From an uncultured delta proteobacterium (GTDB lineage: Bacteria > Myxococcota_A > Polyangia > Polyangiales > Polyangiaceae): a stretch of 64,000 bases of DNA. Below are positions 3,395-60,670 of the stretch, one piece after another; within the stretch, counting starts at the first letter, position 1, and each line of letters opens with the position of its first letter. The position numbers were made by a program, and so were the translations under genes. The notes beneath the pieces are model-generated. The model worked only from the letters and a program-made list of their open reading frames with translations. It did no database searches and was not told the DNA's origin. The DNA lies in NCBI GenBank assembly GCA_963696385.1, contig CAVOKF010000004.1:384001-448000 (forward strand), written 5' to 3'.

Positions 3395-3406
3395 GATTGA
3401 TCCTCG

Positions 3407-4768
3407 ATGCGCTCTCGCAGCTTGCCCGTACTCGTTGCTCTCTACACAGCTCTCATCGCGTGCGGGCCTTCGCTCGGGTCCGGGGGCGGCGCGCGATCTG
3501 GGCCGGCGGCCCAGTGGCTCGATCGCGCCAAGGCCAGTTATCGCGCGGCGGATTTCGACGATGCTCGCGAATCCGTGGGTCGAGCGCTGGCCGCGGCGCC
3601 GAACGATGCGGAGGCCCGAATTCTGGCTGCGCGCATCGCGCTCGTGCGTCTCGACTACGCCGAGACGCTCCGGCTGACCGAAGGACTCGATGCGAGCGAC
3701 GCGCACGCGGCGAGAGGTCGCGCCTACTGGTATTCGGGGGACGTGGAGCACGCCGCCGACGAACTCGAGGCGCTGCTCGCCGATCCGGCAGTCAAAGATC
3801 CCTGGGCTCGCGACGTCGCCGCGCTCGCGCGGCGCGGAGTGGGCCGGCACCCTTTCGAGATGTCGGGGGGGCTGGTCGGCCCCGTGGACATGCCAAAAAT
3901 GCTCGACCGCGTGCCTCTCGGCGCGGCCGACGTGGTTCCGTGTGAATTGGACGGCGAGAGAATCCTCGCGCTGGTCGCGACCGGATCGAGCGAGGTGCTG
4001 CTCGACTCCAACTCGCGCAGGGAGCCGGCGTGGGTCGACCTGAGGTTCGACCGGCTCGAAGTGAAGGACGTTCCCGCGCTCGTCCAGGATCTGACCCCCA
4101 TTTCGCGTCAGATCGGAGTGCCCATCAAGGCGTTGTTGGGGGCGCAGCTGTTGCGGCACGCGCATGCGACTTTCGATCGGCGGGGCGACCAGTTCATCGC
4201 ACGGCGCCAAGATGCCACGCCGCCCCCCGATGCCAGCCGGGTGCCCCTTTACTACCTGCGCGGCGGCGGCATGGTCCTGCGAGCGACCGTCACGGCACGC
4301 GACCAGGATCCCATCGCTCTGTTCGTCGACAGCTCTCGGCCGTTTCCGCTCCTGCTGCAGGACGCAGCTTGGAAGCTGGCGGGGGTCGACCTCACCTCGC
4401 TCGCTTCGTTGCCCGATTCTCCCAACGTCAAGCACGGCACGGTGCCGGTGTTTCGGGTCGGCGGATTCGATCTCGCACGAATGCCGGCTATCGAGGGCTT
4501 GGACATGGGGGAACTGGCGACAGGCCTCGACGTCACGCTCGGGGGGGTCGTGGGTGCGGATCTCCTCGCGTTCTTCCGTGTCACGTTCGCCGACGACGGT
4601 CGATTCATTTGGATTGAGCCCGACCCCATGCTTCTCGGCCCGACGTCGTCCGCCGCAGGCGCGGCCCCCGCGCCGGCGACGAACCCGGCCGCGGGCTCGC
4701 CAACGCCCGCGACTCCGGCGTCCTCCGCGCCCCCCGGGCCTGCGGCTCCGGGCCCCAAGCCGCGATGA
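3407..4768 (+). CDS. lipoprotein with TPR region and two retropepsin-like (aspartyl protease fold) domains
   Basis: Lipobox LIAC; TPR-like helices; ALVATGS...ALLGAQLL and LFVDSS...GVVGADLL; Pro/Ala tail. Confidence 0.65.
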   Translation: MRSRSLPVLVALYTALIACGPSLGSGGGARSGPAAQWLDRAKASYRAADFDDARESVGRALAAAPNDAEARILAARIALVRLDYAETLRLTEGLDASDAHAARGRAYWYSGDVEHAADELEALLADPAVKDPWARDVAALARRGVGRHPFEMSGGLVGPVDMPKMLDRVPLGAADVVPCELDGERILALVATGSSEVLLDSNSRREPAWVDLRFDRLEVKDVPALVQDLTPISRQIGVPIKALLGAQLLRHAHATFDRRGDQFIARRQDATPPPDASRVPLYYLRGGGMVLRATVTARDQDPIALFVDSSRPFPLLLQDAAWKLAGVDLTSLASLPDSPNVKHGTVPVFRVGGFDLARMPAIEGLDMGELATGLDVTLGGVVGADLLAFFRVTFADDGRFIWIEPDPMLLGPTSSAAGAAPAPATNPAAGSPTPATPASSAPPGPAAPGPKPR

Positions 4769-5268
4769 GCGGTGTCGCGATCGCCCGCCTCGCCGTGTAC
4801 GCCGGCAGCTTTGACCCGCCTACACTGGGGCACCTCGATCTTATCGAACGGGCCTCCGCGCTCTTCAGCGACGTCATCGTCGGGATCGGCCGCCATCCCG
4901 CGCGGAGCCCACTGTTCTCCGTGGAAGAACGAATCCGGCTCGTGTCGCTCGTATCGTCTCACCTCGCCAACGTGACTGTGGACGCATTCCACGGACTGCT
5001 CATCGACTTCTGCAAGCAGAAGCAGGCTCGGGTCATCGTGCGTGGGTTGCGCGCGGCGACCGACTTCGAATACGAGCTTCAAATCGCCCATGCAAACGCG
5101 GATCTCGATCCGGAGGTCGATACCGTATTTCTGCCGACACGCACCAAGAACGGCTTCATCAGCGCTTCGCTCGTTCGCGAAATCGCGAGCCATGGCGGTG
5201 ACGTCAGCCGTTATGCCCCCGCGGTCGTCTGCGAGGCACTGACGCGCAAGTTTGCCGATTCGAGGTGA
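4765..5268 (+). CDS. coaD: phosphopantetheine adenylyltransferase
   Basis: YAGSFDPPTLGH, IVRGLRAATDFEYE, ISASLVRE; ATGA overlap with the upstream gene. Confidence 0.97.
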   Translation: MSGVAIARLAVYAGSFDPPTLGHLDLIERASALFSDVIVGIGRHPARSPLFSVEERIRLVSLVSSHLANVTVDAFHGLLIDFCKQKQARVIVRGLRAATDFEYELQIAHANADLDPEVDTVFLPTRTKNGFISASLVREIASHGGDVSRYAPAVVCEALTRKFADSR

Positions 5269-6131
5269 TCCCCGTGTCTCCCATTTCTCAGGCGCCTGCC
5301 TCCTCCATCGCGGCTCGACTGGAAGACTGCGTGTTTGCCGTCCGCAAACGGGTCGGCATCTCCCCGAGGGTCGGCCTGGTGCTGGGTAGCGGTCTCGGCG
5401 CTTTCGCAGAGACGCTCGAAGGCTTGGTGAAATTCCCGTACCGCGATTTGCCCCATATGGCCGAGTCCTCAGTGGCCGGGCACGACGGCAACCTGTGCTT
5501 CGGCACCGTCGCCGGCGTTGCCGTGGTGTGCATGCAGGGGCGTGTGCACCTGTACGAAGGCCATGCGGTCGACCGTGTGGTTCAGGGGGTGCGGACGATG
5601 GCACGGCTCGGGGTTGGTTGCGTTCTCGTGACGAACGCCGCGGGCGGGCTTCACGAGTCCTGGTCCGCCGGGGATCTCATGGTCGTGACCGACCACCTGA
5701 ACTTGACCGGGACCTCGCCGCTCATCGGCCCCAACGACGACTCGATCGGACCTCGCTTTTCGGACATGACGAATGCCTACGATCCCGAGATCCGGCGGAA
5801 GTTGGTGGAGGTGGCGCGGGAAGCGAACCTACCGCTGCACCAAGGCGTCTACGCAGGCCTGCTCGGACCGCAATACGAGACGCCGGCGGAGGTGCGCATG
5901 CTGCGTGGGCTCGGGGCGGACGCCGTGGGCATGAGCACGGTTCTCGAAGTGATCGCCCTGCGCCACATGGGCGTGCGCGTCGGGGCGCTCTCGTGCATCA
6001 CCAACCTAGCCGCGGGAATTTCGGATCGACCCATCGCGCACGCCGAGGTGGAGGCGACGGCGCGGCGGCGAAGGCCCGAGATCGTCACGCTGATCTCGGG
6101 TTGGATCGCGCGGGTCGCACAAACGCCTTGA
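5265..6131 (+). CDS. punA: purine nucleoside phosphorylase (trimeric type)
   Basis: VLGSGLG, GRVHLYEG, TNAAGG, GPQYETPAE, VGMSTVLE. Confidence 0.93.
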   Translation: MIPVSPISQAPASSIAARLEDCVFAVRKRVGISPRVGLVLGSGLGAFAETLEGLVKFPYRDLPHMAESSVAGHDGNLCFGTVAGVAVVCMQGRVHLYEGHAVDRVVQGVRTMARLGVGCVLVTNAAGGLHESWSAGDLMVVTDHLNLTGTSPLIGPNDDSIGPRFSDMTNAYDPEIRRKLVEVAREANLPLHQGVYAGLLGPQYETPAEVRMLRGLGADAVGMSTVLEVIALRHMGVRVGALSCITNLAAGISDRPIAHAEVEATARRRRPEIVTLISGWIARVAQTP

Positions 6132-6541
6132 CGAAGACCTCCGACCTCGCCCTGCTTGTGCAGGCTGCCCGCACTGCGCGGATCCGCGCCTACGCGCCGT
6201 ATTCGAAGTATCGCGTCGGAGCGGCGGTCCTCACGGCCGACCGTCGCATTTTCAGCGGCTGCAACGTCGAGAACGCGACCTACGGTGCGACACTGTGCGC
6301 CGAGCGGTCCGCGATCGCCGCCATGATCGCTGCGGGCGAAAACCGGCCGATCGCGTGCGCGGTCGTCACACGAGGCCCTATACCCGGCGCACCGTGCGGC
6401 ATCTGCCGGCAAGTGCTCGCCGAGTTCGCGCGCGACATGCCGATCCTACTGGTCGCCGAAGACGATCGCGGGGTCGTCACGAAACGCCGGCGGCTGCGCC
6501 TGCAGGCACTGCTGCCGCACGCTTTTCGAATGGCCCGCTGA
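6128..6541 (+). CDS. cdd: cytidine deaminase
   Basis: TTG start overlapping the punA stop; AYAPYSKYRVGAA, GCNVENA, CAE, PCGICRQ. Confidence 0.93.
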   Translation: MTKTSDLALLVQAARTARIRAYAPYSKYRVGAAVLTADRRIFSGCNVENATYGATLCAERSAIAAMIAAGENRPIACAVVTRGPIPGAPCGICRQVLAEFARDMPILLVAEDDRGVVTKRRRLRLQALLPHAFRMAR

Positions 6542-6665
6542 CCTCGGGCGGGCGGGCCTCCAGACCGCTCCTGCCGAGGGATCGCGCCCCCAACGGTGGG
6601 CTCCGAGCCACCGCAGGATGGCGCCACGCAGCCGAGCAATGACCTGCAATCCATAGGTTACGGTT

Positions 6666-6681
6666 TGGCACGCCTTGTGCT
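6666..6681 (+). promoter_or_regulatory. sigma54 (RpoN) -24/-12 promoter
   Basis: TGGCACGCCTTGTGCT has exact GG-N10-GC spacing and a perfect TGGCACG half-site; it lies 24 nt before ATG 6706, with SD GAGGGAG in between. Confidence 0.75.
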
Positions 6682-6705
6682 GATTCACGCGGTGAGGGAG
6701 TTTGC

Positions 6706-9031
6706 ATGAAACGCCGATGCACAGCGCTGACCGTGTTCGCGCTCGCGGGTGCCATCGCCCTGACGAGCGGCTGCACCCAATCGACCGAGGCGAGCGCCGT
6801 GGGAGTGCAGGCCATCCTGTTTATCCAGCGCCAGACCCTCGTGACGACGACCAATCCCGACGGCACGACGACCCAGACGTTCGACGTCGACACCGGCAAC
6901 ACTCAGGTGCTCGACTACACCCGTTACGAGCCCGGAGGCAGCTTGAACCTGCTCTCGCCGGCCCGCTCGGACGGCACGAAGACCAACCTGACCTCGGCGT
7001 TCACGACTGCCGATTTCAACGGAGCCGACGTCTCGTTCGACGGCACGCAGGCCGTCTTCTCGATGAAGACCAGCCCGACCGACAACTACCACATTTATAC
7101 GGTTGATCTCTCGCCAGGGGCGGATGGCAAATTTGGAAATGCACCAAAAGACCAATGGTGCCTGGAACGACGTGAGTCCCATCTACGTGCCCGGCGGTCT
7201 CATCGCATTCGTGACCGACCAAATGTACACGGCGATGGGAACCCGCCACGACGAGTACGAGCATGCGCGCGGTTCGCTGCAGCTGGCGACCATCAGCGTC
7301 GATGGCGGAGACGCGGATCGTCACCTGTTCACGCAAAATCTGTCCCACTCGGTCGCACCGTTTCTTCGCTACGACGGGAAAATTGGCTTTTCGCAGTGGG
7401 AGCATTTCGGCCCGGTCAACGACGTCAAGCTTCGCGCCGTCAACCCCGACGGTACGCAGGAGGTCGCCGTAGGCGGCCAGCACGACAACGGCGGCAACGA
7501 GACGAAGCCCTGCAACGCCCTGTTTACAGCACGAGAGCTTTCGCCCAACGTCATGATCGGCATCGGCACGGCACGCGACCGGACCATTCACGCCGGAGCG
7601 CTCGTTCAGATCGACTCGCGAAACCAGACCGATCCGGTATGCCTCGATGCCAACGCGTACACCAACGGCGGCACCGTCGGGCACGCGTGCCTCGACGAGG
7701 AGCACACGGCGTATTCGGTCTTGACCCCGGACGTGCCCCTTACCGCCGACCCTTCCGCGACCTCCGTGGGCCGGTACCGCGAGCCGAGCCTCTTGCCCGA
7801 TGGGCGCATCCTCGTTTCCTGGGCCGACGGCTCGGTCAACGATCAGAACGAGCTGTCGCTGACGCCGCCGGACTTCGGGATCTACCTGTTCGACCCGAGC
7901 ACCGGCAAGAACGAACTGGTCTACAACGAACGCACGACCTGGGAGCTCAATGCCCTCGCGGTCATGGCCCGCACCGAGCCGCCGGTCATTCCGAGCGCTC
8001 AGCATGTCCAAGACTCCACCATCGCGGCGCATTTCGGATCGGTCGATATTTCCCAGACGTCTCTCAACGAAACGGTGGACGGCGCGGAGTTCGCGAACGT
8101 TCCGCTCGGCCAGGCGCTGCACGAAGGTGCGGTCGCCGTGCGTGTCATCGAAGGCTTCTCGACGGAGTCTACGCCCGGCGTGTCGATGTTCGGATTGACG
8201 CTGTTCGAAGGTGCGGCCGTGCTCGGCGAGGCGCCGGTGTTCAACGACGGCAGCTGGCTCGCGGACGTGCCACCGTACTTGCCCATCCACCTGCAGCCCA
8301 TTGACGAGTACGGGCTCGCGATCCGCAATCAGCAGCTGTGGATCAAAGGCATGCCGGGCGAGACTCGCCGCTGCATTGGCTGTCACGAATCCCGCACGGA
8401 CCCGGGTGTGTTGGCACTCGGTCAGAACCCGACGGTCGCCGAGCAGCAAGGCGCTCAGCCGTTCACCGAAGCCATCGCGGACCGAACCGAGTTCCCATGG
8501 GACAAGAAGGTGCAGCCGATCCTCGACGCCAAATGCGTCAGCTGCCACAACTCGACCACGACCACGTATTACGATCTGACGCAAACCGACCCGGTGACCG
8601 GGCTATCGACGACCTATCAGATCCCGACCCTCGATCTGTCGAGCACACCCATCACGGTCTATTACGACGAGAGCGTGGCCACTTGGCCCGCGTCGTACGT
8701 GTCGATCTTCTATCCGGCGACGATTCAGATGGCGGGCGATTCCACCGGCCAGATCACGGCCGGCATTGTGCCGCCGATGTGGGGTGTGCCAGGAAGCGCG
8801 CGCGCATCCGTTCTCACGCAGACGCTCAACCTGCGCGCAGCCGACGGGACGACGGCCTGGCCGATTTCCACCCATCCACTGCACCCGGAAGACCAGGGGG
8901 TTCAGCTGACCGACGCCGAGCGAAAGACGATTGCGGTGTATCCGATGGACCTCGGCGGGCAATTCTACTCTCGTCAGAATACCAACTTCGTGCCGTTCAC
9001 GACCGGCGACCCGGTCACCCCGGCTCAGTGA
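6706..9031 (+). CDS. hydrazine synthase alpha-like lipoprotein (TolB-type propeller + HZS-alpha middle-like domain + 2 CxxCH); +1 frameshift near 7135
   Basis: Lipobox TSGC; propeller repeats (DVSFDG, PSLLPDGRIL); VRVIEG...LGEAPVFNDGSWLADVP..PIHLQPIDEYGLA..W..MPGETRRCIGCHE; second motif CVSCH. Confidence 0.75.
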
Positions 9032-9045
9032 TTACCGAGGACGCC

Positions 9046-9993
9046 ATGAGATTGCGAAAGATGAAATGGCTCAGGCTCGCCTTCGGTTGCGCCTCTGTCT
9101 GGGCCGCGACCTTTGCTTCGATCGATGCCCGGAGCGATTCGCCGCCGGTGCAAGTGACGCCGAACGCGGACGCGGGCGGCTTCGCCTCGGTGTACGGGCA
9201 GATTCCGCCGAGTCAGGTCGAGTTCTTGTCGACGCCGGAGTCGATCAAGAACGCGGCCGCCACAGGGGGCCCGTCGTTGGTGTGGGAGGTGCTCGAGCAC
9301 GGCGAACGAGTCGAATGCCTCGACTGCATCCCGTTCGTCGCACCGCTGATCTACGCCTCGGACCCGCGGGTGCGCGAGATTGCGGCGTGGTGGTTGCGCC
9401 GCCGCGTCTTGGGCGTCTTCGGGCCCGGACAAGTCTACCAGCAAACGATCCAAACTCTGCAGAGCGACCCGGATCCCCTTCGCCGTTCGTACGCCGCAAC
9501 CGCGTTGGGCGAGTTCTTCGCGCCTCCCGGAGTTGCGGCGTGCGCGGCCGCCCTGAGCGACAGCAGCGCGATCGTTCGGGCCGCCGCCGCCAGCGCACTC
9601 GGCCGGCTCAACAGCGACGGAAACGGCGCGCTCTCCACCGCTCTGTCCGATTCCGACTCAGGGGTCAAGCTGGCCGCGTTGTCGGCGGCGGAACGCATCA
9701 ATTCCTTCGTCGCCATCGCCAACGTCGCTGCTCTGACGACCGACCCGTCGGCCGACGTCCGTCGGCGCGCCATCGAAGTGCTCGACACGCTGGACGCCGC
9801 CGATACCGTCGTGGCCGTCACGGCTGCGGCGCAGAACGATTCCGATGCGACCGTGAGAGCCGAGGCGTGTCATGCGCTCGGCACCTTCGGCGACCAAGCC
9901 CCGAGCGTGCTTTCGGTCCTCCAGCAGCTCGAGACCCAGGACCCGGACACGTTCGTGCGCGACGAGGCTCAAATCGCGCTGCTGAGGCTCTGA
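9046..9993 (+). CDS. exported HEAT-repeat protein with CxxC motif
   Basis: SD GAGGA; signal peptide; HGERVECLDC; repeated D..VR..AA.ALG HEAT units. Confidence 0.8.
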   Translation: MRLRKMKWLRLAFGCASVWAATFASIDARSDSPPVQVTPNADAGGFASVYGQIPPSQVEFLSTPESIKNAAATGGPSLVWEVLEHGERVECLDCIPFVAPLIYASDPRVREIAAWWLRRRVLGVFGPGQVYQQTIQTLQSDPDPLRRSYAATALGEFFAPPGVAACAAALSDSSAIVRAAAASALGRLNSDGNGALSTALSDSDSGVKLAALSAAERINSFVAIANVAALTTDPSADVRRRAIEVLDTLDAADTVVAVTAAAQNDSDATVRAEACHALGTFGDQAPSVLSVLQQLETQDPDTFVRDEAQIALLRL

Positions 9994-10014
9994 CGGAGCG
10001 GCTACCATGATGCC

Positions 10015-13000
10015 ATGCGCCTTGCGAGCCTTGCCGGTGGCCTGATCGCTGCCGCCGTCGGTGCGTTCGCGGTGTCGTCGTGCACGACGCTCGAGCCGCA
10101 GCCGTCGACCTACTTCGACAGCACGATTGCTCCGGGCCTGCAGACCTCGTGTGTGCGGAGCAATACCGGCGCGGGGTGCCATGTCGCCGACGCCAAGGGC
10201 AATGCCTTCGGCAACCTCGACTTGACCAGCTTCGATGGCATCAACCGCAGGCGCGATCTGCTCATCGATTACGGGCCGTACCTGCAACCGGGCTTGCTCG
10301 TGAAGAACATCGGGCCGTTTCAGGTCACCGTCGCGCTCTGGGACGGCACGAAGGTTCTGGTCACCACCGACATCAAGCACGTCGGAGGCGCGGTCCTCGA
10401 TCCGACCGGGGGCGACTATCAGACGCTCCGAAGATGGATCGAAAACGGGGCGACGGTGAACAATACCGGAGTCCCTCCGTCCGACATTTCGACGACCCCC
10501 TGCACGGACGTCGTTCCGTCGGCAGCGGGGTTCGACCCGACGACGGACCCGGCCACCGCCGATTATCCCGTGTTCGTTCAAAGCGTCCAGCCGGTGCTCT
10601 GGAACCCGGCGTCCACTGACTCCTGCGCCTCGGGCAATTGCCACGGGACGATCGTCAATGCGCTGTACTTGACCTGTGGCACGAGCGCGGAAGAGGTTCG
10701 GTGGAACTACTTCGCGGCGGTGAACTACCTCGCGGCCACGGCCGAGGACAGCGAGATCGTGCGGCGTCCGTTGGCCAGTTCCCAGGGCGGCAGTTACCAC
10801 GAGGGCGGTCCGATCTTCGCGTCCGTCATGGACCCCAACTACCAGGCGCTCGTCAACTGGGCGCAAATGCACGGGCCCGTGCAGACCGGTCCGCTCGATC
10901 CGGCATTTCTTTTCTTTGCCCAGAAGGTGCAGCCTGTGCTCGCGAAGAAGGGCTGCATGATGGCGCAGTGCCATTCGGCGGCGATGTTTCACGACTTCCG
11001 ATTGCGTGGCGGATCCGCCGGCAGTTTCTCGCTCACGACGACGCAGAGAAACTACGCGTTCTCGGTGGGACAAATGTCGTTCGAGAGCGACGACGTCAAT
11101 GCCAGTCGTCTCGTGCGGAAAAACCTGTTCCGTCCCGATCTGCTCGACGGATCCACGGGCATCACGCATCGCGGAGGCCCGTTGTTCGAAGACTTCGGGT
11201 CGGTCGACAGCGACGCGTCGCCGGGCACGATCGAGGCCCCCGATCGCGGCGCGCTCTGCGACGGCCACATGCCCGCCTACGACTACGACAACGGCGACGT
11301 CGATGCGATTCCCGCGTATTGCGTCGTTCGCGAGTGGCATCGGCGTGAGCGTGTCGAGCGGGCACTCGCCGCGGTTTCGGCGGTCGTCTACGTGAGCCGG
11401 CCCATCCCGGCGGCGCCGGATCGGGCGCAGGACTTCGACGTATTTGCGGGCGGAGCCAGCCTCCATATCGCGGCGGCGACGTTCCAAGCGTCCGGATTGC
11501 AGATCGGGACCGACCAGGCCGTCGACCTTTCGACCTGCGGCTTGGGCACTTCGCCGGACGTTCGCCGGCCCGCGGTCTCGTGGGATGGTGCGACGATCGC
11601 CTTCGCGGCTCGCGCGACGGCGAGCGATCCTCTGGCGATCTACACGATGAACGCCGACGGCACGGGCTGCGCGGAGCAGCCGGACATCTCGGCGATGCAC
11701 GACGCCTCCCTGACGAGCGTTCCGAACGGCGACAGCATCCTCGTGCACGATTTCGATCCGGCTTTCAGCCCGCCAGGGCCGGACGGCGTGCAGCGCATCG
11801 TCTTCGCATCGACGCGCGGCAACCTCGATTCGAACGGTATCGCGACCACTATCCCGGCGTTCGACTACTCCGGCCCACAGCGCACGCCGTCCGACCCCAC
11901 CAAGCCGAATGCGAACCTCTACGTGCTCGAGCCCGATCCCAGCGGATCGGGGACGCTGCGTGTCCGTCAATTGACCTGGCAGCTCGACATGGAGCGCTTT
12001 CCGAGCTTCATGGATGACGGGCGACTGGTTTTCACCGTCGAAAAGCGCGAGCCCGGGTTTTATCAGTTGGCGCTCCGCCGACAGAATCTCGACGGCGGCG
12101 ATTACCATCCGCTGTTCGCTCAGCGTGGAAGCATCGGCTACGCCCAAGCGACGAGTGTCGTGCAGTTGTCGGACAAGAATTTCGCCGCCATTTTCAGCGA
12201 CGTCACGGCGCAACACGGCGCGGGTGCGGTCGCCGTGTTCAATCGCTCGATCGGCCTCGACTTCACCAGCCCGAATGCGAGCGACTATCCAGTCGACCCG
12301 ACCGTCATCGTGCCCTCCTCGGCCTCCGCTCCCGAGGCCGATTTCTTCCTGCACTCGCTGAGCCCGCCGTTCGTGGACGGATCGTACTCGAGCCCTTCGG
12401 CCCTGCCGGACGGCCAAATGCTCGTCAGTTACGGCGCCGGCGATCCGGCCACCTTCGGGGGCGACTACGACGTGTACGTGATGGACCCCGCGACAGGCCA
12501 GAAGGCGAAACTGCTCGGGACCGCCGGCACGGCCGAGGTCGATGCCGTGGCCGTATACCCTCGGGTTTCGAAAGGCATTTTCGCTTCGAGGCCGGACGAG
12601 CCGAACGGCAACACGTCCGTGCAAGTCGGTCAGACCACGGCGGACGTGACGGTCTTGAACATGCCGGTCCTCGCGTCGCTCCTTTTCCAAAACACGCCTA
12701 CCGGCCGCTTGGTCGAGGCGGACCTCAAGAGCTTCGACGTCTGGGAGGAACTTCCACCGGACGTCATGAGCTTTCCGGCATGTGGGGACAACAACACGGT
12801 ATGTGACTCATTGGGGCCGTCCGGCATGGTTTACGTACGGCGCAGACTTGTCGGAACGGTGCCGCTCTTCGCCGACGGATCAGCCCATTTCCTGATCCCC
12901 GGAGGACTACCCATTCTGCTGCACCTTCCGGCCGATTCGGAGTCGGCCCGCATGAACCTGCCGCGCTGGCAGCGTGAGACGATGACGTTCGTGCCCGGCG

Positions 13001-13212
13001 AGAACGCGCGGCAGTCGTTCTCCACGACATTTTTCGACAATCTCTGCGCCGGCTGTCACGGCGCCATCAGCGGTCGTCCGGTCGACGCAGCGCTCAATCC
13101 CGATTTTCTCACGCAGGCCTCTCAGGTGCAGTCCGTCGGAAGTCCCGCCACGGACTGTTCGGGGCCTCCGGGATCGCGAGGACCGGTGCAGGGCCCGCCG
13201 TCGTCGCCGTGA
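10015..13212 (+). CDS. multiheme lipoprotein: 3 tandem planctomycete-type cytochrome c domains + beta-propeller + HZS-alpha-like domain
   Basis: Lipobox VSSC; CVRSNTGAGCH, CASGNCH, CMMAQCH, CAGCH; VQPVL before two of the motifs and HxGG after the first three; PAVSWDG, PAFSP, PSALPDG repeats. Confidence 0.75.
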   Translation: MRLASLAGGLIAAAVGAFAVSSCTTLEPQPSTYFDSTIAPGLQTSCVRSNTGAGCHVADAKGNAFGNLDLTSFDGINRRRDLLIDYGPYLQPGLLVKNIGPFQVTVALWDGTKVLVTTDIKHVGGAVLDPTGGDYQTLRRWIENGATVNNTGVPPSDISTTPCTDVVPSAAGFDPTTDPATADYPVFVQSVQPVLWNPASTDSCASGNCHGTIVNALYLTCGTSAEEVRWNYFAAVNYLAATAEDSEIVRRPLASSQGGSYHEGGPIFASVMDPNYQALVNWAQMHGPVQTGPLDPAFLFFAQKVQPVLAKKGCMMAQCHSAAMFHDFRLRGGSAGSFSLTTTQRNYAFSVGQMSFESDDVNASRLVRKNLFRPDLLDGSTGITHRGGPLFEDFGSVDSDASPGTIEAPDRGALCDGHMPAYDYDNGDVDAIPAYCVVREWHRRERVERALAAVSAVVYVSRPIPAAPDRAQDFDVFAGGASLHIAAATFQASGLQIGTDQAVDLSTCGLGTSPDVRRPAVSWDGATIAFAARATASDPLAIYTMNADGTGCAEQPDISAMHDASLTSVPNGDSILVHDFDPAFSPPGPDGVQRIVFASTRGNLDSNGIATTIPAFDYSGPQRTPSDPTKPNANLYVLEPDPSGSGTLRVRQLTWQLDMERFPSFMDDGRLVFTVEKREPGFYQLALRRQNLDGGDYHPLFAQRGSIGYAQATSVVQLSDKNFAAIFSDVTAQHGAGAVAVFNRSIGLDFTSPNASDYPVDPTVIVPSSASAPEADFFLHSLSPPFVDGSYSSPSALPDGQMLVSYGAGDPATFGGDYDVYVMDPATGQKAKLLGTAGTAEVDAVAVYPRVSKGIFASRPDEPNGNTSVQVGQTTADVTVLNMPVLASLLFQNTPTGRLVEADLKSFDVWEELPPDVMSFPACGDNNTVCDSLGPSGMVYVRRRLVGTVPLFADGSAHFLIPGGLPILLHLPADSESARMNLPRWQRETMTFVPGENARQSFSTTFFDNLCAGCHGAISGRPVDAALNPDFLTQASQVQSVGSPATDCSGPPGSRGPVQGPPSSP

Positions 13213-15390: not shown

Positions 15391-15404
15391 TCCGCCTCGC
15401 GCTC

Positions 15405-15473
15405 AGTACAGCGCCCCGCTAAACGGTACCCAGTTACGCTGGGTACGCCTGCGTTGCAGGCTGGCGCTGCACT
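15405..15473. repeat. MITE/REP-like palindromic element 1 (four-way-junction fold)
   Basis: Terminal IR AGTACAGCGCC/GGCGCTGCACT enclosing three hairpins (CCGCTAAACGG; GTACCCAG-TTACG-CTGGGTAC; GCCTGC-GTT-GCAGGC). Confidence 0.6.
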
Positions 15474-15476
15474 ATA

Positions 15477-15569
15477 AGACGGTTTCCTTGGGCTTCGCCC
15501 CAAACCGCCAATCGCCTCCCGGCGATTGAAGTACACCGCCCGGCGGATCCCTGCGTTCTGGGGCGGTCT
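15477..15569. repeat. MITE/REP-like palindromic element 2
   Basis: Ends AGACGGTTTC/GGGGCGGTCT; internal GGGCTTCGCCC, CAATCGCC-TCCC-GGCGATTG and CCGCC-C-GGCGG hairpins. Confidence 0.55.
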
Positions 15570-15571
15570 AC

Positions 15572-16669
15572 TCAGCCGTGGCCGCCGACGACGAGTTCGT
15601 CGGCGTGTACGACCACGGCGAGTTCGGCGAGGGGATCCGAGAGATCCTCGCGCGCCTTGCCGGCGACTCGCGCCGCGTCGGCCGCACCGCAGCGCGCCAG
15701 GCCTCGGCCGATTTCGCGTCCGTCGGCGTCAATGAGACGGACGGCGTCGCCGGCACGAAAATCGCCTCGAATCCCCAGCACGCCGATCGACAGCACACTT
15801 CGGCCTTTCGTCAAAAGGGCCAGCGAGGCTCCACGGTCGAGAACGATGTCGCCGCGCGGCCGGAGGGTGAACGCGATCCAAGTTTTTTTCGCGCTGAGCC
15901 GCTCGGCCGAAGCCACGAAGAGGGTCCCGACGTCTTCTCCGGCGAGCAAAGCGTCGAGCGCCCTCGCGTTGCGCGCGTCGGCGACCACGACGTTGGCTCC
16001 CGCCAGGGTGGCGCGCCGCGCCGCCTCGACCTTGCTGGCCATGCCGCCGCTGCCCACCTGGCTCGTCGACTTGCGAACGTGAGGGACCGCCTCGCTCGCT
16101 ACGTTTCGTACGACCGGAACGCGCCGACCTTCGGCGTCGAGCAATCCCTCGACGTCGCTCAAGAGCACGACGAGCTCCGCATCGACCAGGGGCGCCACCA
16201 TCGCCGCGAGCTGATCGTTGTCCAATTTGATCTCGTCGACGGCCACCGAGTCGTTTTCGTTGAGAATCGGGACTGCGCCGGCCTCGAGGAGCGCGCCGAG
16301 GGCCGCGCGCGCGTTGTTGCTGCGGGTTCGATCCGCGAGGTCTGCGTAGGTCAAGAGAACCTGCGCGACGGCAAGCCCGCGCGCGGCAAACGCATCCCCA
16401 TAGGCCTGCATGAGCAGAGATTGCCCAGCGGCCGCGGCCGCTTGCAGGCGGGCGATCTCCTTCGGCCGCGCGCGGTATCCGAGCTTGCGGATGCCGAGGG
16501 CGATGGCACCGCTCGAGACGATGACGAATGACGCGTGCGGATGTGCGGCGCACGTCACGGCCAGGCGCTCGAAGACGGAGGCCCCCTCGGCGGCCAAGGC
16601 CCGAGATCCGATCTTGACGACGATACGCCGTGCGCGCGCGACCGCAGCACGCGCGTCACTCGATTCCAC
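15572..16669 (-). CDS. proB: glutamate 5-kinase with PUA domain
   Basis: VVKIGS, VSSGAI, PILNEND, DND, GSGGMASK, C-terminal PUA; GTG start 16669 with GAAGGA. Confidence 0.93.
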   Translation of the reverse strand: MESSDARAAVARARRIVVKIGSRALAAEGASVFERLAVTCAAHPHASFVIVSSGAIALGIRKLGYRARPKEIARLQAAAAAGQSLLMQAYGDAFAARGLAVAQVLLTYADLADRTRSNNARAALGALLEAGAVPILNENDSVAVDEIKLDNDQLAAMVAPLVDAELVVLLSDVEGLLDAEGRRVPVVRNVASEAVPHVRKSTSQVGSGGMASKVEAARRATLAGANVVVADARNARALDALLAGEDVGTLFVASAERLSAKKTWIAFTLRPRGDIVLDRGASLALLTKGRSVLSIGVLGIRGDFRAGDAVRLIDADGREIGRGLARCGAADAARVAGKAREDLSDPLAELAVVVHADELVVGGHG

Positions 16670-19264: not shown

Positions 19265-20773
19265 CTAATCCACACTTCCGAGTTTGCGCTCGATGGCCTC
19301 GATGTGCGCGCGCACCTCGGGGTCGTTCGAGCGAAGGGCCTCCACCTTGCGAACGGCGCTGATGATGGTCGTGTGGTCGCGATTTCCGAACGCGCGACCA
19401 AGCTCGGGAAAGCTGCACTTCAAGCGCTGCTTGCACAAGTACATTGCAACGTGGCGGGCGAACGCGATGCTCTTGTGCCGATCTTTCGAGAGCAGATCGG
19501 TCGATCGAAGCTTGAAGTGGTGGCAGACGACGCGCTGAATGTCCTCGACGCTCGCTTCGTTGGGGCGTGACGTCCCGGTCGCCGCAATCTCGGTGCGCGC
19601 GAAGTCGAGCTCGATCGGCTTGCCGAGCAATGAGGCCTTGGCCGCCAGGCGGATGAGCGTTCCTTCGAGCTCCCGAACGTTGCTTCGAACGCTTTGTGCA
19701 ATGTACACGCATACGTCGTCGGCGAGCTCGATGTGCTCGAGTTGGGCTTTCTTTCGGACGATGGCCACGCGGGTCTCGAGCTCGGGCGCCTGGATGTCGG
19801 CGACCAGTCCCCATTGAAAGCGCGACACGAGCCGCTCCTCCATCTTGTCGAGCTGCTGAGGATACTTGTCGCTCGTGACGACGATTTGCTTGCTCGCCTG
19901 GTGGAGTGCGTTGAAGGCGTGAAAGAACTCTTCCTGCGTTTGGGTCTTTCCGGCCAGAAAGTGAATGTCGTCGACCAGCAGCAGGTCGCATCGATCGCGG
20001 TATCGAGCGCGAAAATCGTGCATGCGCTGATCGGTCAGCGCTTGAACGAACTCGTTAACGAACTTTTCGGCGCTGATGTAGACGATGCGGGCTTCCGGCC
20101 GTTCGTCGCGAACTCGGTGGGCGATGGCGTGGACGAGGTGCGTCTTTCCGAGACCGGTGCCGCCGCAGACAAACAGCGGATTGTGCCGCCTGCCGCCCGC
20201 CCCCGCGGCGGCCATCGATGCAGCGTGGGCGAGCTGGTTCGAGGGGCCGACGACGAAGTTCGCGAAGGTGTATTTTCCGTTGAGGCCCTCGAGGAGGGGA
20301 GCGAGAGCGAGCGCGCGCGACGGCAGCCCTGGCGGAGTCGAGCGCCGAACGCCACCCTCTCCCGGCCGAGACATGGAGTCGTCCGGAGCGGGTGGTCGGA
20401 CCGACAAGGCGCGCGGCTTGACCGGTGCAAAAGGCGCGGGCCGGTCGGCGACGGGGCGATCCAGCGCCCCGTCGATGGTCCAACGCACTTGAATGCTCAG
20501 GCCCGTGTTCGCCGCGAGCCGCTCGCTCAACGTGGGCAAAAAATAGTCGTCGACCCATTGCCGAACGAAGTCGTTGCGCGCTCGCAGCGCGAGCACACCG
20601 TCCGTCAGGCCGTCGAATTGAACTCCGGAAAACCACTGATCGAAGCTCGCGGGCGATTTTTCGCGCGTGAAAGCAACGGCCTCACCCCAGCTCCGCTCGC
20701 CTGACATCGAAGGCACCTCACGCACACGACCCAGGGGTGTTCCATCCAAGTCGCCGTGCTCGTGGATGGGCAT
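19265..20773 (-). CDS. dnaA: chromosomal replication initiator protein DnaA
   Basis: Domain I FDQWF; YTFANFVVGPSN, NPLFVCGGTGLGKTH, LLVDDIHF, TQEEFFH, RELEG, RDHTT; start may instead be 20707. Confidence 0.96.
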   Translation of the reverse strand: MPIHEHGDLDGTPLGRVREVPSMSGERSWGEAVAFTREKSPASFDQWFSGVQFDGLTDGVLALRARNDFVRQWVDDYFLPTLSERLAANTGLSIQVRWTIDGALDRPVADRPAPFAPVKPRALSVRPPAPDDSMSRPGEGGVRRSTPPGLPSRALALAPLLEGLNGKYTFANFVVGPSNQLAHAASMAAAGAGGRRHNPLFVCGGTGLGKTHLVHAIAHRVRDERPEARIVYISAEKFVNEFVQALTDQRMHDFRARYRDRCDLLLVDDIHFLAGKTQTQEEFFHAFNALHQASKQIVVTSDKYPQQLDKMEERLVSRFQWGLVADIQAPELETRVAIVRKKAQLEHIELADDVCVYIAQSVRSNVRELEGTLIRLAAKASLLGKPIELDFARTEIAATGTSRPNEASVEDIQRVVCHHFKLRSTDLLSKDRHKSIAFARHVAMYLCKQRLKCSFPELGRAFGNRDHTTIISAVRKVEALRSNDPEVRAHIEAIERKLGSVD

Positions 20774-20959
20774 TGCGGCCTGCGCCAATTCACTCGACAA
20801 CCAACCAACTTCGACGTTCAGCCCCATGACCCCAGTCCCTTCGCGACAAATTCCCAAAGCTCCGCTGCGATGCGCTCGCGGGCCAAGCGGCACCGGGGCT
20901 CGCCGGCCCTCAGCGGCCTACCCGCACCCCGTGCAACGAACACCAGCGGTCACCACACG

Positions 20960-21634: not shown

Positions 21635-22621
21635 GTGCGTACCCTGGGAGAAGCGGTAGTCGTTTCGGCTACCGCGCTCGGCTCACTGTTGTTCGCATCG
21701 GGGAATGCGGCCGCGGCTCCCATGTCGATCTCACCTGAGCAGGCGTACGATCTCGGAGAAATCCCGAGCGCCCGGGCGGTTGGCATGGGCGGATCGCTCA
21801 ACGCCCTTGGGGTATCGACGAGCTCGCTCTACTTGAACCCAGCCAACCTGCCGCTCGCGCGCGTCTATCACTTCGAAACGCTGGCTGCCTATATCCCCGA
21901 GGCAAGTCGGCAGACGTATGGCCTTGCAGTCGCCGACTCCATGACCGGCAAGCTCGCGGGAGGTGCGGCGGCGACCTGGTCGCTGCTCGACCCGAGCGGA
22001 ATTCATCGAACGTGGACCGATATACGGGCCGCGTTCGGCTTTCCGCTGGGAGATCACCTTGCGCTCGGGGCTGCCGCTCGCTGGCTCCGCGTCGAGCAGG
22101 ACGCTTCCGCGGGCCCGTTCGGAGCCAGTCCTGCGTCGAGCGGGACCGCGAACGCTCCCATCTTCAACGCGATCACGTTCGATGCGGGAGCGACCGTCAG
22201 CATCGGAGACGGATTTCGAATGGCGGCCGTGGGTCACAATCTGACGTTCACGAACACTGCGCTGGCCCCGACGACCGCCGCCGCGGGCGTCGGTTACTCC
22301 GCCCAGGTGTTCGCGATCGAAGCGGACGGATTGCTCGACTTCACGACCTGGGGGAACACGCGCGGCCGCATCATGGGAGGCGGCGAGCTCTTTCTCGCGG
22401 ACCACTACGCGATCCGCGCGGGGTGGCGCTACGACGGCGGGACGAAGCTCAACACGCCCTCGCTCGGTTTCGGTTACATCGACCCGCACTGGAGCGTCGA
22501 GATCGGGGCTCGCCGCGATATCGAGGCGGAGCATGCGTCCACGCTCGCGGTCCTGTCGCTCCGCTACTTTTACGATCCCAACGCCTCGACGTCGCCGGCC
22601 GATCAGCTGGGCGGGTTCTAG
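21635..22621 (+). CDS. outer-membrane beta-barrel protein (PorV/FadL-like)
   Basis: Signal peptide; ARAVGMGG...SSLYLNPANL N-terminal motif; amphipathic beta strands. Confidence 0.65.
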   Translation: MRTLGEAVVVSATALGSLLFASGNAAAAPMSISPEQAYDLGEIPSARAVGMGGSLNALGVSTSSLYLNPANLPLARVYHFETLAAYIPEASRQTYGLAVADSMTGKLAGGAAATWSLLDPSGIHRTWTDIRAAFGFPLGDHLALGAAARWLRVEQDASAGPFGASPASSGTANAPIFNAITFDAGATVSIGDGFRMAAVGHNLTFTNTALAPTTAAAGVGYSAQVFAIEADGLLDFTTWGNTRGRIMGGGELFLADHYAIRAGWRYDGGTKLNTPSLGFGYIDPHWSVEIGARRDIEAEHASTLAVLSLRYFYDPNASTSPADQLGGF

Positions 22622-57247: not shown

Positions 57248-60200
57248 TCATTCGCGATCGAAACCGGTGACGAGAGGGCCGTAGATTTCGAGCCACCGCT
57301 CGTAGGACTTGAGCGAAGGCTCCCGGCGCGCCGCCAACTCCGCGGCCGCCGCCTCGATCCGCTTCGGCAAATTCACAACGAGCGGACCCCCCACGGAGAC
57401 CGTGAGTTCCGCGGTCAGCCACAGCACATCGAGTTGCTCCTTGTCGCTCACTCCATGGGCTCTGGCGTGAAGGTCGTCCGCTCGCGCCAGCGCCCGACCG
57501 AGCCAATTCCGGGTGGCCGCCGCGTCGTGACGCTCGCTCGCATTCAGGGCAAGCTGCGCCTCGGCCAGCATCTCCTCGCGCTCGATCTCCACCCGATTCG
57601 TCTCCCTCAGCTGCTGCTCGAGGATCGCGTGCCGCTGGCCGATGGCTTGCGCTGCCGCGTCCAAGCGGCCAAGCTCTCGGTTCGCCTTGGCCCGCAAGCC
57701 GCTCGCAATGAGTCGGTACGCGCGAACGACCTGGTCGGGGGTCGCATGCGGCCACTGGAGCGTCGCGACCGTCCTCGGGTCGCCCAGGCGCTTGTTCACG
57801 TCATCGAGATCGGCGAGCGCGCGAGAGGGCTTGTTGGCGCCGACCGCAGACGCCGCGCGCGAGAAGCGCGCCACCACCCGATTGCGCGCGGCCATCGGGG
57901 CGCGCGACGCGTCGAGCAGCGGGATTTCCTCATCGTAAAGTGCGAGGGCGCGTGCGAAGTGCTCCGCTGCGAGGTGGTCTACCGCGGCCCAGTCGAGAGC
58001 CAGGAGACGGTAAGGGGCGAGCGCCCGTTTGCGGGCGATCATGGCGAGCGCGGCGTCGCCGGCGGCGGCCGCCTCCGCGTCGCGCCCGACGTGCAACAAC
58101 GCCTGCGCCTTCGACAAGAGGACGTCCAGTCCCTCGGGGTTGTCGGTGTAGGGCAGCTCGTCGCGTTCGAGCAGGTAGGCGAGGGCGATCCGGTAGTTTC
58201 CGACGTCCGTGTGCAATAGACCGAGTTCGCCGAGAATCATCGCTCGCAAGCGCGCGTTGTCGGCCACGAGCTCGAGCGCGATGAGGTAGTGCGCGTTGGC
58301 CCCCTCGGCCGCCCCGAGGTCCCCGGTGTGCAGGTATTGCTCGTGCAGGAGCGCGCCGAACAGCGCCTGAGCCATCCGCTCTTGCTTGAGATCCGACCAG
58401 GAAGCGTCGAGCGCCGCCAGTGCAGCGGCCGAAGCCTTGGCGTGGGCCTCTCCGTTGAGCGTCTGCAGATGCCGTGCGATGAGATACGCCTTGGCGAAGT
58501 GCGCGCGCGCCGGTAGGACTGCGCGTGGGTCGTACCGGGCCTCGATCGCGCCCGGTGGGTCCCCCAACTTCAAGCGCATGTCGATCGCTCCGACGTCCGC
58601 CTCGAGCGAGCCGGTCTGCTCGGCGACCGCATCGAAGTCATCCCGTGCGTCGCCGTAGCGCTTCGCGGCCACACGCTCGTAGGCTCGCGCGAGAATCAGG
58701 CGCTCGTAGACGTCTTCGGTCTCTCCTCGCTCGTGCGTCCCTCGCTTCACGTCACGGATGTCGCGCTGTACCAGGGCGTCAAGCACGTCGTCCGCGTCCA
58801 CGTCGTCCGCCCGCTGCACCGCATCGACGATGAGCGCCCGCCGGCGACCCGGGCGGGTCTGCGCCGCGTAGAGCGCGAGCAACGCATCGCCCACCGCCTG
58901 GGGCGCGTGGGAGTCGCGGATGGCCAGCACGTCGCGTGCCAGGTCGATCGCGAAAACCCACTCCCCCTCGAGGGGGGTCGCGCCGGCTCGCTCGCGCACG
59001 AGTCGAGCGTCGGCCTCCCCGTAAGCGAGCCCGCGCACCATGGCGCGCACGGCGGCTCGCGCGTAGCGGAGCTGGTCATCGGGTCTCAACGCCCCATTGG
59101 CCGACAGCTTCCGGCACGCTGCGATGAGCGCCTCGCGATCGTCGACCTGTCGGTAGAACGCGTCGACTTGCTGGTAGTACGCTTCGACGATGGGGGCGGG
59201 CGTCGTTTCGTCGACCGTGACCGCCTCGAGCTCGTGCCGCGCCTTCGCCTTTTCACCGATCGAGTCGAAGATCTCACTTCGCGCCAGGTGTGTGAGGTCC
59301 TCGGCCATCGGGCTCTCGGCCGCGTCCGCGTGCAGCCGGTCGAGCCGCGCCTGAGCCTCGACGCGAAACCCCTCCATCATGCGTCCCTGCTCGCGGCGGC
59401 GCTCGGCCTGCCGCTCGGCCACGAGCATTCGCAAAGGCAACGAAATCCCCGCCGTCGCCTCGTCGCGCAGCGTGTCCACCTGCTCCGCGTAATACTGGGC
59501 GGCGGGAAATTCTTCGCGCTCGAGGTGCACCAGCACGAGCGCGAGCATCGCGCGTCGCCGGCCGGCGGCGCTCGTCTCGCGCGAGAGGCGCAGGCTCGAA
59601 AGCATCTGCTCTTCGACGAGCGTATCCGCGTCGTCGATGGCGTTCACGAGCATCGGCATTGTCCAGGAGGCGGGGACCTCGCCGTCCAGGGGCAACGAGT
59701 AAACGTCGAGGCTTGCGTCCCGTGAACACGTCGCGATCAGGCGATCGACGAACGGTGCAGGGTACTCGCAATTCCACGACGTCTCGGTGAGCTGCTCGGG
59801 GGAACCGACGACCGGCGTGCCCGTAGCAAACGAAATCGGTACTCGGAAGAGGACGCCGTGGTCGCTTGCGTCGACCGTTCCGTCGCGATTGGTGTCGGTA
59901 AAGAACTGGACCACGTACAGCGAGCGGCCGTCCTTGGCGAAGACGGGCTGGCCCGTCTGTCCTGGGAGCGCCAAGACGAGGGCGGTCGGCTGGGCCGTTG
60001 CGGCCGATGCGAGCGGGACCGCTTCGATGGCCTGGGCCGCATGGGCGGCGAACGCCGGGCCCACAGCCCGCACCGTCCTCGCGACCGGGACGTACACGAG
60101 CCAGCGCCCGTCGGGCGAGATGGCTGGGCTCGTCAGGTTGCGATCGAGCAGCGGCCGCGCCGAGAGGGTCGAGCCCATCGTGACTTCCAGGACGCGCAGG

Positions 60201-60670
60201 TCCCCCTGGATCGACTGCCGGCTGACGAGCGCGATCCGGTCCCGATCGATCCATTCGGCCTGTAGCGCGGCGGCCGGGTCCTGGAGGCACGTGCGCCCGT
60301 CGCCCTGCGGGAGGCGACGGACGCACAGCTGTCCCGAGGCACTCTCGCCGAACGAGATGTACAGCAGTGACCTCCCATCCGGGCTCACCCGCGGCCATGT
60401 GACGTCCGCGCCGTCGTCGAAGAGCTGCCGCGCGCGCCCGTCGGCCACGCTCTGCGCGAAGATTTGTTGGGTCGTGTCGCGGTTCGACACGAAGTAGAGC
60501 GTCTTGCCGTCCGGCCCGAGCTGACCCAGCAGATCGTCGGCCACGTCCACAGTCAGGCGCTCGGGCGTCACGAGATCGTCGTCGTCCACGTTGTCGGCCG
60601 ACGCACGCCCTGCGACGAGGGACGCGGTCAGCGCGAGGGCGGCGGCCGTCAGGGCTCGCGGCTTCAGCAC
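57248..60670 (-). CDS. exported TolB-like beta-propeller + long TPR/alpha-solenoid protein
   Basis: Signal peptide ending ASA; PDGKTLYFVS, PRVSPDGRSL, PAISPDGRWL, PVFAKDGRSL; DTNRDGTVD Ca-loop; long helical C-terminal region. Confidence 0.8.
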   Translation of the reverse strand: MLKPRALTAAALALTASLVAGRASADNVDDDDLVTPERLTVDVADDLLGQLGPDGKTLYFVSNRDTTQQIFAQSVADGRARQLFDDGADVTWPRVSPDGRSLLYISFGESASGQLCVRRLPQGDGRTCLQDPAAALQAEWIDRDRIALVSRQSIQGDLRVLEVTMGSTLSARPLLDRNLTSPAISPDGRWLVYVPVARTVRAVGPAFAAHAAQAIEAVPLASAATAQPTALVLALPGQTGQPVFAKDGRSLYVVQFFTDTNRDGTVDASDHGVLFRVPISFATGTPVVGSPEQLTETSWNCEYPAPFVDRLIATCSRDASLDVYSLPLDGEVPASWTMPMLVNAIDDADTLVEEQMLSSLRLSRETSAAGRRRAMLALVLVHLEREEFPAAQYYAEQVDTLRDEATAGISLPLRMLVAERQAERRREQGRMMEGFRVEAQARLDRLHADAAESPMAEDLTHLARSEIFDSIGEKAKARHELEAVTVDETTPAPIVEAYYQQVDAFYRQVDDREALIAACRKLSANGALRPDDQLRYARAAVRAMVRGLAYGEADARLVRERAGATPLEGEWVFAIDLARDVLAIRDSHAPQAVGDALLALYAAQTRPGRRRALIVDAVQRADDVDADDVLDALVQRDIRDVKRGTHERGETEDVYERLILARAYERVAAKRYGDARDDFDAVAEQTGSLEADVGAIDMRLKLGDPPGAIEARYDPRAVLPARAHFAKAYLIARHLQTLNGEAHAKASAAALAALDASWSDLKQERMAQALFGALLHEQYLHTGDLGAAEGANAHYLIALELVADNARLRAMILGELGLLHTDVGNYRIALAYLLERDELPYTDNPEGLDVLLSKAQALLHVGRDAEAAAAGDAALAMIARKRALAPYRLLALDWAAVDHLAAEHFARALALYDEEIPLLDASRAPMAARNRVVARFSRAASAVGANKPSRALADLDDVNKRLGDPRTVATLQWPHATPDQVVRAYRLIASGLRAKANRELGRLDAAAQAIGQRHAILEQQLRETNRVEIEREEMLAEAQLALNASERHDAAATRNWLGRALARADDLHARAHGVSDKEQLDVLWLTAELTVSVGGPLVVNLPKRIEAAAAELAARREPSLKSYERWLEIYGPLVTGFDRE

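Follow-up and report, generated by a model that had tools for sequence, protein, structure and literature searches.

The closest described systems are the alpha subunit of hydrazine synthase (HZS) of anammox bacteria, HzsA, and its homologues in other bacteria. In HzsA, heme alphaI has Tyr591 as a ligand and His587 binds zinc (PMC12607021; PMC12758564). This heme has been described as catalase-like, and heme alphaII as lying beyond electron-transfer range of the other hemes (PMC12607021); Cys303 varies even among anammox bacteria (PMC12758564). The role of HzsA-like proteins outside anammox bacteria is disputed: PMC11828985 (2025) counts them as anammox potential, and PMC12758564, which describes non-anammox clusters of alpha and beta-gamma genes without Tyr591, rejects that. 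The top matches of the structure search in PMC12758564 included no protein of confirmed other function. Here, a three-gene operon encoding two HzsA-like lipoproteins and an exported HEAT-repeat protein was analyzed in a stretch of 64,000 nucleotides (the window; contig CAVOKF010000004.1 of assembly GCA_963696385.1, positions 384,001 to 448,000) from an uncultured delta proteobacterium of the Polyangiaceae. The operon is real and conserved, occurs in many myxobacteria of soil and water, and is a variant of the known but functionally unexplained HzsA-like proteins.

The genome that holds the window (G000) comprises 6.94 Mb in 8 contigs and is 96% complete. As the original prediction, made from the sequence of the window, had stated, the three genes are tightly spaced; they lie head to tail on the + strand, with a cytidine deaminase gene upstream and an M13 peptidase gene downstream. 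Assignment by eye, rather than by a signal-peptide program, gave a lipobox-type Cys23 in genes 1 and 3 and a signal peptide in gene 2. The features of the operon are as follows.

6666..6680, + strand: sigma54-type -24/-12 box, TGGCACG-N5-TGC, 26 bases before the start codon of gene 1
6706..9031, + strand: gene 1, with lipobox Cys23, six-bladed propeller, HZS-alpha middle domain, CxxCH at the alphaI position and alphaII-type domain
8372..8386, + strand: CIGCH of gene 1 at the heme alphaI position; C556, C559, H560 and R563 (numbering of the relative L001) invariant in 18/18 sequences; aligns with CSGCH of 5c2v_A
8534..8548, + strand: CVSCH of gene 1 at the heme alphaII position; C610, C613 and H614 invariant in 18/18; aligns with CAMCH of 5c2v_A
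8882..8884, + strand: His in HPED of gene 1; H727 invariant in 18/18, its aligned counterpart in HzsA being His772, the distal heme alphaII ligand
9046..9993, + strand: gene 2, exported HEAT-repeat protein of 315 amino acids (aa), the N-terminal part of which is specific to the family (LEHGERVECxxC, AWWLRRR)
9316..9327, + strand: CxxC of gene 2 (C91-C94), invariant in 18/18 and also present in L059, a locus from another order
10015..13212, + strand: gene 3, 1065-aa lipoprotein (lipobox-type Cys23) with four heme-type motifs
10111..11361, + strand: N-terminal domain of gene 3, three tandem cytochrome-like repeats (CX8CH/H122, CX4CH/H262, CX4CH/H385)
11365..12585, + strand: TolB-like six-bladed beta-propeller of gene 3, about residues 451-857
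12637..13059, + strand: HZS-alpha-type middle domain of gene 3 with CAGCH at the alphaI position; C1011, C1014 and H1015 invariant

In the window, gene 1 is not a single open frame, a point that had been overlooked: the frame shifts near 7135-7141. The close relative L001, the gene 3 of which is 95% identical, has one G fewer at this site and an intact gene 1 of 775 aa. Three of the four sequencing runs examined have a contig over the site (X1, possibly the source sample; X2, DNA from another study; and X7, RNA), and all three are without the extra base. Because this base is absent from X1, X2, X7 and L001, the frameshift is an assembly error, i.e., one spurious base near 7135-7137, and the interpretation of gene 1 as a pseudogene is ruled out.

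The earlier view of gene 1 as HzsA-like, with CIGCH and CVSCH motifs, agrees with a match to PF18582 of 60.1 bits (E 3e-16), which passes the gathering cut-off of 26.6 bits. Similarity to HzsA in structure had been set as a test; the profile of 18 gene 1 orthologues matched the HzsA chain 5c2v_A with E 5.4e-20 in stretches over chain residues 48-767 that lie in the propeller, the middle domain, the two heme motifs and the C-terminal end. H727 is aligned to chain residue 745, which is His772 at an offset of +27, the same offset by which chain His560 is His587. Judged by sequence only, gene 1 has both elements of a bis-His heme alphaII, a CxxCH and a His772 equivalent. The Tyr found at +4 in HzsA (Tyr591) is missing from gene 1, and no Tyr is conserved there in the 18 sequences, in which CxGCH is followed by ESRT or similar residues. 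The position of HzsA Cys303 falls outside the hidden Markov model alignment, and no propeller Cys is invariant across the gene 1 family. The gene 1 profile retrieved 7002 cluster representatives at E<=1e-3; therefore, the wider family is large. By these comparisons, gene 1 is an HzsA homologue from the propeller through the C-terminal heme domain, and it probably binds two c-hemes.

Gene 3 had been predicted to carry four heme-type motifs, and all of them were found to be invariant in 28/28 sequences (41-77% identity), namely C46/C55/H56, C204/C209/H210, C314/C319/H320 and the terminal CxxCH, together with H122, H262 and H385. Only the motif at 1011 is a canonical CxxCH; the others are CX8CH (46-56), CX4CH (204-210) and CX4CH (314-320), and the first of them is CX6CH in many relatives. 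Unlike HzsA, three of the four motifs precede the propeller, in a repeat of the form F/Y..I/V.P.L...CXnCH...HxGG...W that occurs three times. No Tyr is present at +4 of the alphaI-position motif, which is followed by GAIS or similar residues (28 sequences).

The second HZS middle domain ascribed to gene 3 stood up in profile and structure comparisons, and its own PF18582 match did not reach the cut-off (E 0.004, 18.2 vs 26.6 bits). PF18582 was detected at E<=0.01 in 13/28 relatives of gene 3, and PD40 in 23/28 family members. According to hhalign, residues ~452-1055 match the gene 1 family (99.8%, 502 columns), and the gene 3 profile matched 5c2v_A with E 5e-9. For the structure model of gene 3 (predicted local distance difference test, pLDDT, 76.6; predicted template modelling score, pTM, 0.79), the top Foldseek match was again 5c2v_A (E 5.2e-22, 639 columns, template modelling score 0.47 by target), followed by the TolB family (1e-11). 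VIA analysis of the full protein gave Z 25.3 to TolB 1c5k (264 aligned, root-mean-square deviation (rmsd) 3.4), and the 50 matches listed were only propellers, with 5C2V absent among them. Since the profile-profile, profile-to-PDB and structure comparisons agree in spite of the sub-threshold PF18582 match, gene 3 is, as far as sequence and model indicate, a rearranged HzsA paralogue.

The tri-heme N-terminal domain folded alone (39 sequences) gave a pLDDT of 83.5. A Foldseek search returned nothing at E<=1e-3, and of the 48,161 chains compared by VIA, the c-cytochromes FoxE (Z 4.5 and rmsd 3.3 for 85 aligned residues) and PccH (Z 3.5) matched best, both weakly and below the trust level. An Atlas search returned only unnamed or cytochrome-like clusters (0.90-0.91). 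The modelled domain appears to be without a clear solved fold, by which a new fold is not demonstrated. The six motifs and four candidate distal His residues are invariant over genes 1 and 3, which is the pattern of a multiheme c-type cytochrome, and three cytochrome c assembly genes were found in G000. Gene 3 would bind four c-hemes, of which the three in the N-terminal domain are predicted to be bis-His.

FoxE and PccH are electron-uptake cytochromes, and this weak resemblance, together with four hemes of six that look bis-His and the origin of the runs containing locus DNA (soil, peat, wetland), would suit a non-catalytic module for electron transfer or storage. All six hemes would then only conduct electrons across the envelope and exchange them with partners encoded outside the operon (humics, metals, other enzymes). 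Such a module is rather unlikely. In an open reading frame (ORF) and family scan, the three-gene unit contained neither a porin or quinol dehydrogenase gene nor one for a long multiheme protein; no families of a porin-cytochrome conduit (MtrCAB-like) were above cut-off in the three genes, the neighbours of which are the cytidine deaminase and the M13 peptidase. Two big propellers with many invariant residues are hard to square with a simple wire, and in HZS itself heme alphaII is out of reach of the other hemes, as cited above. The case for extracellular electron transfer is accordingly weaker than the original prediction allowed.

The assignment of gene 2 as an exported HEAT protein agrees with a HEAT_2 match (E 1e-27) and a signal-like N-terminus seen by eye. 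In addition to the CxxC, a WWxR motif is invariant in 18/18 sequences. The gene is single-copy in most genomes, and an Atlas search with its product returned HEAT clusters.

The joint occurrence of the three genes was assessed in 121 genomes of the order, with synteny tallies made by hand from search tables; the tallies include the unpublished genome G110, which no adjacency count uses. Strong matches to genes 1, 2 and 3 were found in 61, 59 and 60 genomes, respectively. Among the 60 gene-3 genomes, 53 have gene 1 ahead of gene 3 on the same contig and strand, and 52 have all three genes in order, representing ten families, which bears out the co-occurrence expected in other genomes. In five gene-3 genomes, gene 3 and the pair of genes 1 and 2 are on separate contigs, in most cases close to a contig end; the copy in G011 is broken, and G085 has its gene 3 in another place. 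In 151 genomes of the family, searched with genes 2 and 3, both genes occur in an identical set of 69 genomes and are linked within ~3 kb in 66. Presence across the family is mostly all-or-none per genus (31/70 genera), and several family genomes as large as 10-13 Mb gave no gene 3 match. Strong gene 3 matches in the phylum sample (10/151) are confined to the class, and L059, which belongs to another order, has all three genes in order. The 29 loci found via gene 3 are records from Polyangiaceae, Myxococcales, Myxococcota, Labilithrix and metagenome-assembled genomes of delta/Proteobacteria; an orthologue of gene 1 has been recorded from the cultured species Sandaracinus amylolyticus (P0287). 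At one locus (L039:6898-8727, genome G107), a gene for a 609-aa MutS-family ATPase-like protein, recognized by eye, stands between genes 2 and 3. The three genes very probably constitute one functional heme-based envelope system, with putative physical binding of its members.

The sigma54 link also held. The box TGGCACG-N5-TGC has two matches in the window vs 0.21 expected. An upstream alignment was made of 25 sequences, i.e., the window, 21 of the 29 loci found via gene 3 and three loci preselected for the motif; seven of the 29 loci, too short or marginal, and L015 were left out. TGG[CT]-N8-TGC stands upstream of gene 1 in 24/25 aligned sequences and in 20/21 unselected loci of close relatives (56-95%), the only one without it being L021, the sequence of which is cut inside the gene. 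Outside the window's own family, the box was noted at one locus only (L046). Its conservation in close relatives suggests that the operon is sigma54-controlled. The second exact box (58927-58941, - strand) is probably a chance occurrence because it lies inside a 1302-aa ORF with PD40 repeats (57248-61156, - strand). Some 60-90 bases 5' of the operon's box, a GGG...GCCCCC element (window 6575-6615) recurs in most aligned relatives; an activator site is one possibility, a short dispersed palindrome another. A GC-rich palindrome at 6542-6645 was rejected as a folded element, since its folding does not exceed that of shuffled sequences (z -0.35). Neither a sigma70 promoter nor a clear terminator was found at the operon ends.

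Transcription was assessed in assembled contigs of metatranscriptomes X7 and X15, which belong to one study and were picked via gene 1 (X17-X20, with a small share, were excluded). A contig of X7 spans 6708-8634, a second, 95%-identical contig of this run crosses the junction of genes 1 and 2, and X15 contains fragments of gene 1. No RNA contigs cover 3400-6200 and most of gene 3, and with runs picked by gene 1 and assembled into contigs the genes cannot be ranked. These contigs hint that the operon is transcribed, and the contig start at 6708 is weak transcript support for the sigma54 box.

Sigma54 controls myxobacterial development. The conserved box, the TolB-like propellers, the HEAT scaffold and the mostly all-or-none presence by genus could mark a sensing or envelope-assembly device, with propellers and HEAT repeats as binding platforms and hemes as redox or gas reporters in a social, predatory or developmental process under sigma54 control. 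We regard such a device as unlikely, given that the conserved three-gene unit contains no kinase, cyclase or membrane transducer, that six hemes are too many for a sensor and that gene 3 was not found in the large family genomes mentioned above.

The partners of HzsA in hydrazine synthesis were then sought across G000. No hzsB (NF052340) and, at 1e-8, no fused hzsBC (NF052342) were found, and a myxobacterial beta-gamma-like query gave no match; hzsC (NF052341) matched with E 8e-5 only, on other contigs and unlinked. In the family sample, weak NF052342 matches occur in 81/151 genomes, none over the cut-off and none of the listed positions adjoining the operon. The HAO profile PF13447 had no match in G000, nor in 14 control genomes, so its absence is uninformative. 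The equivalog cut-off of NF052339 (800 bits) is not reached by the C-part of gene 1 (55.6 bits), by the intact gene 1 of L001 (58.6 bits) or by gene 3 (16.3 bits). The operon product is in all likelihood not a hydrazine synthase, because no hzsB or hzsBC was found in G000 and Tyr591 is missing; the original prediction had called hydrazine synthesis improbable from the window, a view that is now strengthened genome-wide. A divergent HZS or other N-N bond-forming enzyme, with anammox-like chemistry in myxobacteria, would have full-length HzsA homology and the retained His772 on its side, as well as the argument of PMC11828985 that divergent HzsA in other phyla can function. With Tyr591 absent from both proteins, no invariant propeller Cys in gene 1 to take the place of Cys303, and activity rejected in PMC12758564 for homologues with the same losses, this explanation is highly improbable.

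We tentatively read the operon as an envelope redox enzyme in which two HzsA-like lipoproteins and a CxxC-HEAT partner may reduce a small N/O compound, the substrate being a prediction. Gene 1 with two c-hemes and gene 3 with four would form a six-heme system. Four of the six, three of gene 3 and one of gene 1, would be alphaII-like, bis-His and low-spin hemes that could hold and pass electrons; the two alphaI-position hemes, presumably ordinary His-ligated and next to the propellers, are the putative reactive sites. Gene 2 may serve as a scaffold in place of the beta-gamma subunit, and its CxxC would tie the proteins to the thiol electron supply of DsbD, with these electrons used for turnover or for heme attachment at the unusual CX4-8CH motifs. 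The net activity would most likely be the reduction of a small reactive compound of nitrogen or oxygen, to detoxify or scavenge it, either in the periplasm or at the outer membrane, with expression switched on by an inducing condition via sigma54.

In favour of this reading, a DsbD-thioredoxin gene stands divergently beside gene 1 in 26 of 60 gene-1 genomes from nine families, in one case with a gap of 2.6 kb (an example is L040:11133-12371). Several findings weigh against the envelope redox enzyme. The DsbD gene is present in 109/121 order genomes anyway and, in the order sample, is adjacent in 0/10 genomes that belong to the window's own family and carry the operon; because of this near-universal presence and non-adjacency, the linkage may be inherited gene order. 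No NrfA and, above cut-off, no NosZ (best E 1e-5) were detected in G000, and no respiratory N-oxide pathway that the operon could serve was found there. Direct profile comparison of the gene 3 repeats with the gene 1 family gave nothing (0.8%), and they matched a bridge alignment of four alphaII-type domains (87%, E 3.9e-6, 52 columns); with this four-sequence bridge and no direct match, the alphaII kinship of the repeats is only moderate. PMC11492766 lists CX3CH, CX4CH, CX11CH, CX15CH and CX17CH as heme motifs, and CX6-8CH is absent from that list. Finally, gene 3 occurs without genes 1 and 2 in L048, L049, L058 and G085; therefore, a fixed three-part complex is not obligatory.

The stand-alone copies have varied surroundings. 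At L048:508-11158, an extra gene 3 lies 3' of SCO1 and of genes for a heme-copper oxidase subunit I-like protein and a cytochrome b/4Fe-4S/FlpD fusion; at L049:1964-10412, an extra gene 3 is near genes for a cytochrome c, a cytochrome d1-domain protein and a radical SAM protein on the opposite strand; at L058:6641-10967, the orthologue is directly 3' of a Cu/Zn superoxide dismutase gene. The last case, the export of the lipoproteins and the catalase-like heme alphaI of HZS could be combined in an oxidative surface enzyme (peroxidase- or MauG-like) that acts on a polymer, metabolite or protein while its bis-His hemes buffer electrons or holes. We consider this improbable, as the Tyr ligand is absent, the peroxidase-like gamma subunit is unlinked and the thiol/DsbD associations favour reduction.

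A bolder reading is that in aerobic myxobacteria genes 1 and 3 encode a beta-gamma-independent alpha/alpha-prime heme enzyme for a new type of N-O or N-N chemistry, in which the tri-heme domain replaces the gamma subunit as the electron source and the CX4-8CH sites have the CxxC-HEAT protein as their own maturase or thiol-to-heme relay. This proposal is speculative and probably incorrect in this form; if true, it would provide the first function of the HZS alpha scaffold outside anammox and a clue to its pre-anammox role.

Eight loci are from distant Myxococcota, of which seven were annotated (all but L062); L058 and L059 hold gene 3 orthologues. In four of the other five, a single alpha-like gene is followed by a beta-gamma-like gene and accompanied by ApbE and DUF3570 genes.

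L055:5974-14267: cluster of alpha-like, HzsBC-like, ApbE and DUF3570 genes, also with DUF4266
L057:4514-12880: cluster of the same four genes
L060:1959-10832: cluster of the same four genes, with thioredoxin fused to ApbE
L061:1478-10024: cluster of the same four genes

At the fifth locus (L056:2550-14466), two distant alpha-like genes ~6 kb apart flank an acyl-CoA ligase gene, with no beta-gamma-like gene found beside them and no ApbE or DUF3570 genes. According to PMC8238504, clusters of ApbE, DUF3570, DUF4266 and thioredoxin are tied to DsbD-fed extracytosolic electron transfer. Both architectures point to thiol-fed extracytosolic redox chemistry, by association only. The ApbE/DUF3570 clusters join HZS-like proteins to a flavinylation system, a link that was not found in the literature searched.

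As for the surroundings of the operon in the window, dnaA is located 6 kb downstream (19265-20893, - strand), and from its position the operon is likely near the replication origin; in three single-contig family genomes, gene 3 is likewise near the sequence end. After the M13 peptidase gene, a short stretch (15400-15580) is matched by many contigs from other places, which suggests a dispersed repeat. The TPR protein encoded at 3407-4768 weakly matches an aspartyl protease, and 21635-22621 encodes a candidate PorV/PorQ-like beta-barrel, below cut-off.

The term 'undescribed' used for the operon applies in part. Non-anammox HzsA homologues have been published (PMC12758564, PMC11828985), and for the two-alpha, CxxC-HEAT operon or the tri-heme domain no description was found in the literature searched, which covered few subscription papers. 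The operon is a counter-example to equating an HzsA-like match with anammox: in metagenomes from soil or peat, an hzsA-type match can come from a myxobacterium and have nothing to do with anammox. The CX4-8CH motifs of the tri-heme domain escape ordinary CxxCH counts. A compact operon in ten families, without beta-gamma and with a gene 1 orthologue in a cultured species, Sandaracinus amylolyticus, makes the question experimentally tractable.

TolB shares the six-bladed propeller (Z 25.3) and differs in having no heme and no middle domain; no tol-pal genes were seen adjoining the operon. With anammox HzsA (5C2V chain A; NF052339, PF18582), the operon proteins share the six-bladed propeller, the middle domain and the alphaI CxxCH, and in gene 1 only, the alphaII domain and the His772 equivalent. 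The operon differs from it in the absence of Tyr591, of linked beta/gamma genes and, in the gene 1 family, of any invariant propeller Cys that could match Cys303, in lipoprotein anchors, in two paralogues instead of one, in the three added N-terminal CX4-8CH domains of gene 3 and in the CxxC-HEAT gene. The cold-seep HzsA/HzsABC clusters (PMC11828985) likewise include HzsA-like genes with signal peptides outside Brocadiales; they carry hzsBC, which the operon does not, and Myxococcota is not among the hzsA phyla listed in that paper. The HZS-alpha homologues of clades I-IV (Hagglund et al. 2025, PMC12758564) are also non-anammox, with Tyr591 not conserved, a predicted canonical alphaI heme and function unassigned; Cys303 is not conserved in them, and the gene 1 family has no invariant propeller Cys. 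According to the same source, they were selected by a link to a fused beta-gamma gene, and clade I is without His772, whereas the operon has no beta-gamma, keeps His772 and includes a second alpha and a HEAT protein; the terms Myxococcota, Polyangia and HEAT do not occur in the main text of PMC12758564. The alpha-like proteins of L055, L057, L060 and L061 likewise combine CX4CH repeats with a propeller, a middle domain and a heme, at 28% identity to gene 3 (E 9e-47), and in three of the four also end in an alphaII-type domain. There, one alpha-like gene is combined with a beta-gamma-like partner and flavinylation genes, whereas in the window operon the same parts are split over two genes, with a HEAT protein instead.

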